NCBI RefSeq assembly: GCF_054482595.1
Contig: NZ_CM137008.1
Strand: one strand, 5' to 3'
Length of the DNA stretch: 64,000 nt
Of this stretch, positions 2,950 to 44,535 are shown piece after piece; the stretch's first letter is position 1; every line of letters begins with the position of its first letter. Made by a program: the position numbers and the translations under genes. The notes below the pieces were generated by a model that ran no database searches, was not told where the DNA came from, and saw nothing but the letters and a program-made list of their open reading frames with translations.

Positions 2950-3075
2950 GACCATCACTATTGCCGGATGCGGCGTAAACGCCTTATCTGGCCTACGGAG
3001 AGCATTTGTAGGCCTGATAAGACGCGGCAAGCGTCGCATCAGGCATTGGCGCGGTTGCCGGATGAATCCAAACAA
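2950..3075. repeat. REP/BIME palindromic units (GCCGGATGCGGCGTAAACGCCTTATC-type)
   Basis: Characteristic REP consensus read in the yfaL-ubiG intergenic. Confidence 0.8.
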
Positions 3076-6725: not shown

Positions 6726-13572
<6,847 letters not shown>

Positions 13573-16277: not shown

Positions 16278-19212
<2,935 letters not shown>

Positions 19213-22863: not shown

Positions 22864-22957
22864 AAAAAAAAACCGGATGCGAGGCATCCGGTTGAAATAG
22901 GGGTAAACAGACATTCAGAAATGAATGACGGTAATAAATAAAGTTAATGATGATAGC
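22864..22957 (-). ncRNA. micF: micF antisense sRNA (represses ompF)
   Basis: Minus-strand sequence GCTATCATCATTAACTTTATTTATTACCGTCATTCATTTCTGAATGTCTGTTTACCCCTATTTCAACCGGATGCCTCGCATCCGGTTTTTTTT, divergent from ompC. Confidence 0.9.
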
Positions 22958-23276
22958 GGGAGTTATTCTAGTTGCGAGTGAAGGTTTTGTTTTGACATTC
23001 AGTGCTGTCAAATACTTAAGAATAAGTTATTGATTTTAACCTTGAATTATCATTGCTTGATGTTAGGTGCTTATTTCGCCATTCCGCAATAATCTTAAAA
23101 AGTTCCCTTGCATTTACATTTTGAAACATCTATAGCGACAAATGAAACATCTTAAAAGTTTTAGTATCATATTCGTGTTGGATTATTCTGCATTTTTGGG
23201 GAGAATGGACTTGCCGACTGATTAATGAGGGTTAATCAGTATGCAGTGGCATAAAAAAGCAAATAAAGGCATATAA

Positions 23277-29298: not shown

Positions 29299-30957
<1,659 letters not shown>

Positions 30958-31330
30958 TGATGTGCCACATCCGGCATGGTATGCCGGATGTGGCGTATGC
31001 TGATAAGACGCGCCAGCGTCGCATCAGGCAACCGGCTTGGGTGTTAGATGTCGGATGCGGCGTAACCGACTTATTCGACCTACGGAGTGGAGCACTTCAC
31101 AGCGGTGTAGGCCTGATAAGACGCGTCAGCGTCGCATCAGGCAACCGGCTCGGACGTTGGATGTCGGATGCGGCGTAACCGCCTTATCCGACCTATGGGG
31201 TGGAGCACTTCACAGCGGTGTAGGCCTGATAAGACGCGCCAGCGTCGCATCAGGCAACCGGCTCGGGCGTTAGATGTCGGATGCGGTGTAACCGCCTTAT
31301 CCAACCTATGGGGTGCCGCACTTCACGGCA
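30958..31330. repeat. BIME cluster: about three tandem ~125-bp units of REP palindromes
   Basis: Repeated TGATAAGACGCGCCAGCGTCGCATCAGGCAACCGGCT...GATGTCGGATGCGGCGTAACCGCCTTATCCGACCTA units read directly. Confidence 0.85.
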
Positions 31331-31332
31331 GT

Positions 31333-31821
31333 TTAGCGAACTACCGCGTTGTCAATTTTCTCTTCCGCCTTCCAGACGCGGTACTTCACATCTACATTGT
31401 CTGGCGTATACACCACGATCGGCAGCTTGCTGTTGTAACGCAGCATTCCAGCATCGCCCAGATACGCGGTGACAAATTTCTTCTCTTTCTTGCCATCCGG
31501 GCAGGCCATCATCGTGGAAACCGGCGAGCTAACTTTATCAAAGACATAATAATCATAGCCCCAGCCTTCCAGCGTTTTGCTTTCCAGCTTCCCGCCGAGA
31601 CGATGCAAATTGCAATCGACTTCCAGCGTCTGACCGATTAACAGTTCTACTTTCAGGGTAGATTCATCTTCTTGCGGGGTTAACTGAATCACCTGACGCT
31701 TCATGCCTTTTTCAGCTTGTGGATAAGGCGCGATTTTTTCCAGTGGCTGGACGCTCTCTGCCGCCCAGGCGGAAGTGGTGGCGAAAGCGGCAAACAATAC
31801 TGCAGGTAGAATGGTCTTCAT
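31333..31821 (-). CDS. eco: Serine protease inhibitor ecotin (162 aa)
   Basis: [20 protein letters not shown] signal then [14 protein letters not shown]...; trimmed from 197-aa ORF. Confidence 0.95.
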
Positions 31822-32227
31822 TTTTTGCTTTCCTTCTTCATTTATAGGTTTGCACCGATGATGTCGCTGAAGGTTAACATATTCATCAGATTTATTAATT
31901 TGCTTTATGAATAACTTAAAGAACATTCAGACAATTTTACCTGCTCTTTTAGTGTTAAATTCTGGCGAGAGAACAAGCCAGCAGAAATATCTCTGGTGAA
32001 TTAATCGCTATATAAATATGTTTATAACCATTTGAAATGTGAGCGAAAGCCCGTTTTTGCCACGCTTCCCGCCACTCTTTTGATCCTGCTACAGGTTTTA
32101 CCCCGATCGGGGTATGCATCTTTGACACATCCTTTAATATCTTAGCGGCTATAAAAATGGCTTATTAATTATGCGGTTTATTTGGTCGCTCTCAATTTTC
32201 AGAGCGCGTTAATGATGGAAGGTCAAT

Positions 32228-44394: not shown

Positions 44395-44535
44395 GCCAGA
44401 CTGATGACAAAGTGCGCTTAGTTTATGCCGGATGCGGCGTGAACGCCTTATCCGGCCTACACAATCGTGTGAATTCAATAAATTGATCGATCCGCGTAGG
44501 CCTGATAAGCGTAGCGCATCAGGCAGTTTTGCGTT
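44395..44535. repeat. REP/BIME element between ccmH and narP
   Basis: GCCGGATGCGGCGTGAACGCCTTATCCGGCCTAC... and CGTAGGCCTGATAAGCGTAGCGCATCAGGC units. Confidence 0.8.

Follow-up and report, generated by a model that had tools for sequence, protein, structure and literature searches.

A three-unit BIME-2 repeat array between the convergent mqo and eco genes of Escherichia coli

Between the genes mqo (malate:quinone oxidoreductase) and eco (ecotin) lies a 375-bp spacer (30958-31332) that holds a tandem repeat array. Coordinates refer to the window, the whole 64,000-nucleotide stretch that was analysed (contig NZ_CM137008.1 of NCBI RefSeq assembly GCF_054482595.1). According to both the list of open reading frames (ORFs) and the RefSeq annotation, the two genes are convergent and the array sits wholly between their stop codons. 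Gene names follow those that RefSeq assigns in E. coli XH990 (NZ_CP019359.1), which is 100% identical to the window; the eco frame in the ORF list (31333-31926) is longer than the annotated coding sequence (Table 1). RefSeq gives eco as 489 nt for some strains and as 510 nt for others (UTI89, 1303, C41), which suggests a different choice of start codon, and records differ on a small ORF adjoining eco, naming it either yojO or 'hypothetical protein'.

Tandem Repeats Finder reported one array at 31000-31326, with a period of 113, 2.9 copies, 92% matches, no indels and a score of 563, and a repeat search found in-register 113-nt copies beginning at 31000, 31113 and 31226. A preliminary description of this DNA had recognised a BIME cluster of 'about three tandem ~125-bp units' at 30958-31330. 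Its unit count holds, whereas the period is 113 bp (125 being 375 divided by three), and its interval spans essentially the whole spacer, of which the first 42 nt lie outside the array. Each unit is composed, in order, of a Z2 REP in minus orientation, a 20-nt head-to-head linker (S), a Y REP in plus orientation and a 23-nt tail-to-tail linker. Read on the plus strand, the Z2 REP of the unit is GTAGGCCTGATAAGACGCGnCAGCGTCGCATCAGGC and the Y REP is GTCGGATGCGGCGTAACCGCCTTATCCGACCTAy. Degenerate patterns for the two REP types, built on consensus strings quoted in PMC11208160, each matched three times in the spacer (Z2 at 31111, 31224 and 30998 with 0, 0 and 2 mismatches; Y at 31163, 31050 and 31276 with 0, 2 and 2 mismatches), against 0.00 matches for either pattern in shuffles of the window.

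Table 1. Features of the mqo-eco locus, in window coordinates.
Feature	Position	Strand	Details
mqo CDS, malate:quinone oxidoreductase	29311-30957	+	stop TAA 30955-30957; ORF list and NZ_CP019359.1 annotation
P0 perfect palindrome	30964-30994		arms 30964-30977 / 30981-30994, 14 bp, 3-nt loop
Z2 REP no. 1	30995-31029	-	degenerate foot GTATGC vs GTAGGCC; 2 mismatches; hairpin z = -3.1
S linker, head-to-head, unit 1	31030-31049		20 nt; unit dissection
Y REP no. 1	31050-31083	+	degraded hairpin CCGAC/ATTCGAC, ends CTAC; 2 mismatches; hairpin z = -0.38
Tail-to-tail linker, unit 1	31084-31106		GGAGTGGAGCACTTCACAGCGGT; unit dissection
Z2 REP no. 2	31107-31142	-	exact consensus match with GTAG; hairpin z = -5.89
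Z2-S-Y pair, unit 2	31110-31193	-	Rfam naRNA4 (RF02564), 75.3 bits; gathering score 59.5
S linker, unit 2	31143-31162		unit dissection
Y REP no. 2	31163-31196	+	GTCGGAT...ATCCGAC, ends CTAT not CTAC; 0 mismatches; hairpin z = -4.44
Tail-to-tail linker, unit 2	31197-31219		unit dissection
Z2 REP no. 3	31220-31255	-	exact consensus match; hairpin z = -5.18
Z2-S-Y pair, unit 3	31223-31306	-	Rfam naRNA4 (RF02564), 68.4 bits
S linker, unit 3	31256-31275		unit dissection
Y REP no. 3	31276-31309	+	one-sided change GTCGGAT...ATCCAAC, ends CTAT; 2 mismatches; hairpin z = -2.51
Terminal linker variant	31310-31332		abuts eco stop; 5-bp hairpin 31314-31330, weak, z = -1.96
eco CDS, ecotin	31333-31821	-	NZ_CP019359.1 annotation mapped to window

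The whole spacer folds far better than its shuffles on either strand (z = -5.6 on the plus strand and -5.2 on the minus strand). As single strands, the hairpins of all three Z2 REPs and of Y REPs nos. 2 and 3 are significant, and that of Y no. 1 is not. A REP is an imperfect palindrome that folds into a bulged hairpin with a GTAG/CTAC tetranucleotide at its foot. The GTAG foot is intact in Z2 nos. 2 and 3 and in Y no. 1, reads GTAT in Z2 no. 1 and is replaced by CTAT in Y nos. 2 and 3; the decayed hairpin of Y no. 1, together with the two CTAT-ending Y REPs, suggests weak constraint on individual units. Across 19 distinct units, REP hairpin pairing held in 97% of cells, whereas slid controls gave 24-44%. 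Covariation within the hairpins of these 19 units was no better than in shuffles, the units being too similar for the test to be informative.

Ahead of the array, beginning 6 nt past the mqo stop codon, stands a perfect palindrome, P0, whose DNA fold reaches -18.6 kcal/mol (z = -6.95). P0 is not a canonical REP, although its right arm is similar to a Y REP's 5′ half. It is single-copy, found in one place per genome in 4083 genomes; it occurs in every one of the 13 E. coli alleles compared and also in Escherichia sp. E1V33, and is absent from E. albertii. P0 is followed by GTATGCTGATAAG, and a search of both strands from 30700 to 31600 for intrinsic-terminator-like sites, defined as a G+C-rich hairpin followed by a U run, returned none. 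REP hairpins within 15 nt of a stop codon have been reported to stall terminating ribosomes and reduce translation (Liang et al. 2015, as summarised in PMC12306157), and P0, at 6 nt, falls inside that range. P0 might down-regulate Mqo translation, which we treat only as a lead because P0 is not a canonical REP.

The BIME-2 family has been described since the 1990s. As defined by Ton-Hoang et al. (PMC3333891), a BIME-2 pairs a Z2 REP with an inverted Y REP across a short S linker, in multiple tandem copies whose number varies among strains. Flanking linkers of the s, l or r types belong to the BIME-2 pattern as well. In the mqo-eco spacer, minus-oriented Z2 and plus-oriented Y REPs alternate three times, the S linker is 20 nt long and carries no IHF site (the consensus WATCARNNNNTTR has no match in 30958-31332), and three units stand in tandem, their number differing among strains. 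The individual elements match the published Y and Z2 consensus sequences, are extragenic and lie at the 3′ ends of genes, as REPs typically do. The cluster named in the preliminary description is real, and it is specifically of the BIME-2 type. BIME-1 elements (RIB/RIP) resemble the array in placing inverted REP pairs in extragenic 3′ regions, but they join Z1 to Y, in single copy, through a conserved long linker that binds IHF; a BIME-1 reading was rejected, the partner here being Z2 and not Z1, the 20-nt linker lacking the IHF consensus and the unit being tandemly repeated. Replication Risk Sequences were likewise set aside: a 226-bp double unit is about the size of the 222-bp RRS (Pham et al., PMC10592627), but these lie near dusC and lysO, not between mqo and eco.

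The feature is very probably a BIME-2 array of three tandem 113-bp Z2/Y units between convergent mqo and eco with the palindrome P0 ahead, representing a three-unit allele of the K-12 eco-mqo BIME-2; this explanation also takes in the likely gyrase and RNA roles and the mode of copy change set out below. The K-12 array occupies the same locus between the same flanks and shares the 42-nt head, the 113-bp unit and the terminal 107-nt unit, with units 93-97% identical, and differs in having six units (MG1655) against three in the window. The window's units are also more diverged, differing mutually at 9-12 of 107 positions against 0-4 among U1-U4 of K-12, and two of its Y REPs end in CTAT rather than the CTAC of K-12. 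At these two places (31193-31196 and 31306-31309, in Y nos. 2 and 3), every other unit compared from E. coli and from Escherichia sp. E1V33 carries C. A link between the K-12 array and the EcoCyc name REP161, mentioned in bioRxiv 10.1101/2024.07.17.603846, was sought, but that work lists no positions for REP161 and the name is left unassigned. The array is already known, having been used in the original gyrase-cleavage work and being present in recent genome-wide maps, and copy-number variation of BIMEs between strains is already published (PMC3333891). To this we add locus-specific numbers, evidence from a chimeric unit for homologous contraction, the array of E. albertii and an example of IS621 insertion; the mqo-eco array is otherwise an ordinary, already described feature that matters little beyond correct annotation.

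Copy number at the locus was compared across 5,426 complete genomes. One query consisted of the two flanks alone (600 nt each from mqo and eco), and another spanned the unit junction. The locus was found in 5,421 of the 5,426 genomes, with both flanks joined in one place in 5,373. Among 60 evenly spaced genomes, 39 had a one-unit spacer (149 bp), 4 a three-unit spacer (~375 bp), 2 a four-unit spacer (~490 bp), 4 a five-unit spacer (~602 bp) and 10 a six-unit spacer (~715 bp), the flanks being split in the remaining 1. Fifteen alleles were read unit by unit, and every E. coli allele so read follows one plan: a head of 42-44 nt, then n repeats of 113 bp, and last a 107-nt unit that finishes exactly at the eco stop. 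Direct reading gave one unit in O157 H2495, UTI89 and EC2; three in XH990, 33E, IAL7255 and 1303; four in C600 and T28R; five in CFSAN061772 and 203740; six in MG1655 (714-bp spacer) and CE0032f; and seven in C41(DE3), whose spacer is 829 bp long.

A 64-nt unit-junction probe, applied at a minimum coverage of 80%, extended these counts to the full set. The number of places it matches equals the number of units minus one, a rule checked in CH4784 (6 units, 5 places) and C41(DE3) (7 units, 6 places). The probe matched 2,007 of the 5,426 genomes (37%, carrying at least two units). A matched genome had 5 such places in the median and 11 at most, and alleles of up to twelve units may exist. In 53 sampled multi-unit genomes, two units were counted in 1, three in 7, four in 5, five in 7, six in 25 and seven in 8. 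One unit is thus the state of ~63% of genomes and three units that of ~5-7%, with six the commonest expanded state; because ~63% carry only one unit, the extra units are dispensable. The expectation in the preliminary description that the cluster would vary among strains is borne out by these alleles of 1-7 units, and its phrase 'unusually extended' applies on one scale and not on the other. Compared with BIMEs generally the array is long, only 7 of 263 K-12 BIME-2 intervals exceeding 300 bp (Sutormin et al. table), and the other REP loci in the window (~2963-3018, 19127-19203 and ~44427-44506) hold at most a REP pair. For the mqo-eco locus itself the array is intermediate, with six units in K-12 and more than three in roughly a quarter or more of genomes. 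Differences in spacer length among strains, from 149 bp to more than 800 bp, are to be read as whole-unit repeat polymorphism and not as insertion of foreign DNA.

A small class of alleles departs from this series. In ~49 of the 5,426 genomes (0.9%) the flanks were too far apart to join, and the one inspected, strain 2017-02-2CC (NZ_AP027764.1, 2233-4000), has a 1,768-bp mqo-eco spacer with IS621 inside the array. The insertion point is GTAG^GCCTGAT within a Z2 REP, and the AG core flanks the element at either end. IS621 belongs to the IS110 family and is a 'bridge RNA' recombinase. Its natural target is ATCAGGCCTAC (PMC11208160), and in the window the target 11-mer occurs at 31107-31117 (Z2 no. 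2), 31220-31230 (Z2 no. 3), 3008-3018 and 44496-44506. The further properties first ascribed to such clusters, as terminators, mRNA stabilisers and targets of REP-directed mobile elements, are general ones supported by the literature (PMC3333891; bioRxiv 10.64898/2026.03.23.713779), the last of them exemplified by IS621 in the array of this one genome.

Each of the window's units has a counterpart in another strain at 96.3-99.1% identity. Because its units are diverged from one another and each nearly identical to units elsewhere, the array is not a recent amplification in this strain. A scan of species-representative genomes with a 29-mer from the unit junction revealed arrays between mqo and eco in two further species. 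In E. albertii NBRC 107761 the mqo-eco spacer (9848-10619 in its own coordinates) is 772 bp long and contains ~6.5 diverged units of 112-115 bp without P0; in the cryptic-clade Escherichia sp. E1V33 the spacer (415-790, likewise) is 376 bp long and contains P0 and three units. An array of several units at this locus is therefore older than E. coli, and alleles with a single unit probably arose by contraction. One such contraction can be traced: the single unit of O157 is a perfect chimera, equal to U1 of 33E over positions 1-64 and to U3 of 33E over positions 54-107, which places the exchange point inside the 11-nt stretch GGATGCGGCGT. This stretch lacks the C|T dinucleotide that TnpA-REP requires (PMC3333891), which favours homologous exchange or slippage over cleavage of the RAYT type for the O157 contraction. 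Within K-12, U2 of MG1655 equals U4, while U5 matches U6 apart from having an internal-type 3′ end. C600 is exactly 226 bp shorter than MG1655 (four units against six), both being K-12 derivatives, and the end points of the deletion lie in identical units (U2 = U4); either the copy number changed on a laboratory time scale, or the assembly has collapsed. Such comparisons of alleles indicate that copy number changes in whole 113-bp units, by homologous exchange or slippage between units.

At the DNA level, the best-documented activity at mqo-eco is cleavage by DNA gyrase, in K-12. The K-12 'eco>-<mqo' BIME-2 is, at 654 bp, the longest of 263 intervals in supplementary table DS3 of Sutormin et al. 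2019 (PMC6379681), where Topo-Seq assigned it 11 gyrase cleavage sites with ciprofloxacin (Cfx), 7 with rifampicin plus ciprofloxacin (Rif+Cfx), 2 with microcin B17 and 5 with oxolinic acid; for ciprofloxacin, its count is exceeded by tldD-yhdP alone. A note in the same table row reads 'Espeli, Boccard 1997: 6 cuts', which is one per K-12 unit. The K-12 array is the longest and among the most gyrase-active of the K-12 BIME-2 sites. Cleavage fell on Y REPs far more often than on Z2 REPs, and the cleavage signal at BIME-2 was higher when transcription was blocked with rifampicin (Sutormin et al. 2019, PMC6379681); BIME-2 elements have also been proposed as topological barriers (PMC10592627). By orthology with K-12, the three Y REPs of the window are likely gyrase sites. 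They would act as strong, transcription-independent sites of gyrase binding and cleavage, with roughly one cut per unit, placed where the positive supercoils of two converging transcription units would meet.

At the RNA level, REPs are palindromic, and from what is known of the family both the mqo (plus-strand) and the eco (minus-strand) transcripts would end in runs of stable hairpins. Such terminal hairpins would block 3′-5′ exonucleases and partly attenuate read-through, making the array a candidate two-way 3′-end structure. The model for this role is REP325, a 12-hairpin BIME-2 that acts as a partly Rho-dependent attenuator and stabilises the upstream mRNA (bioRxiv 10.64898/2026.03.23.713779). 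A comparable attenuator and stabiliser role for the mqo and eco transcripts is plausible, because the spacer has no intrinsic terminator and forms strong hairpins on both strands. The same study found that convergent genes separated by a REP are more highly expressed, but that mRNA half-life is not generally longer when a REP follows the gene.

A different view of the array is that it is mainly a selfish or neutral repeat of the REPIN type, spread and amplified by RAYT/TnpA-REP, with a copy number that drifts and no host function dependent on unit number. Like REPINs, REP doublets mobilised by a domesticated Y1 transposase, the array consists of inverted REP doublets of ~80-110 bp, and Z2 nos. 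2 and 3 and Y no. 1 retain the GTAG foot recognised by TnpA-REP. Unit counts run from 1 to at least 7 without obvious cost, individual hairpins have decayed in the window, and TnpA-REP cleaves and recombines BIMEs in vitro, an activity its authors propose as a means of making tandem copies (PMC3333891). Yet at least one unit stands at mqo-eco in every genome examined, the array is also found in E. albertii and Escherichia sp. E1V33, and the K-12 allele is among the strongest BIME-2 gyrase sites. The copy changes reconstructed at this locus differ from C|T cleavage and resemble homologous exchange between units; at least the O157 event, with no C|T in its exchange stretch, is not of the RAYT type, and Y REPs nos. 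2 and 3 of the window lack the GTAG/CTAC needed for RAYT recognition (PMC3333891). On this balance we consider an essentially selfish or neutral array somewhat unlikely, and prefer a BIME-2 with the gyrase and RNA roles proposed above.

Two further readings would turn the units into genes. In one, they encode naRNA4-like RNAs, processed from the eco-sense transcript, that act with HU to bridge cruciform DNA and condense the chromosome, a nucleoid role proposed for REP325 (yjdM-yjdN), which has the same architecture (Qian et al. 2015, PMC4550694). The likeness is considerable: both arrays are made of tandem Z2/Y pairs in a 3′ UTR context, and on the minus strand two mqo-eco units exceed the Rfam threshold for naRNA4 (Table 1), the remaining unit scoring 49.1 bits, below the gathering score. 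REP325 nevertheless lies at another locus, with other linkers, and between tandem genes of an operon rather than convergent genes. The RF02564 model was built from the REP325 BIME-2 unit, so a hit means 'BIME-2 pair' and not 'sRNA gene'; the model is in effect a Z2-S-Y pair that any BIME-2 pair will match. A single REP pair elsewhere in the window, at 19127-19203 (plus strand), scores 76 bits as naRNA4, and RF02564 therefore matches generic BIME-2 pairs. Moreover, no promoter-like site was found in the spacer, and REP325 and naRNA4 are reported to cause no measurable nucleoid compaction and no REP-REP contacts (Harris et al. 2026, bioRxiv 10.64898/2026.03.23.713779). Genes for naRNA4-like RNAs are thus very unlikely here, and the Rfam hits are best read as 'BIME-2 unit', being no evidence for an sRNA gene. 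In the other reading, the region would encode small proteins of 55-157 aa from ORFs that overlap the repeats (30957-31178, 31037-31273 and 31168-31641 on the plus strand; 31137-31304 on the minus strand). The four overlapping ORFs, which had been called spurious products of the repeats from the beginning, match no Pfam family, and the RefSeq annotations of XH990 and MG1655 include none of them. Since 113 bp is not a multiple of three, gain or loss of a unit shifts their frame between alleles, and REPs and linkers account fully for the sequence of the spacer. A protein-coding reading was rejected as almost certainly wrong, and short ORFs across the mqo-eco spacer are to be ignored in annotation.

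Beyond the BIME-2 identity and the roles proposed with it, unit number (1 to at least 7, possibly 12) could serve as a heritable, reversible dial on gyrase sites, on a two-way 3′-end barrier, or on both, with P0 separately lowering Mqo translation; we regard this extension as quite improbable. If it were true, expression of mqo or ecotin, or else local supercoiling, would not be the same in lineages with one, three or six units. The locus in any case offers a clean natural allele series, from one to seven units, in which unit number can be set against gyrase recruitment or the expression of convergent genes. Elsewhere in the window, the MicF antisense RNA was recognised on the minus strand at 22865-22958 (Rfam RF00033, 116.8 bits), an ordinary feature expected beside ompC.
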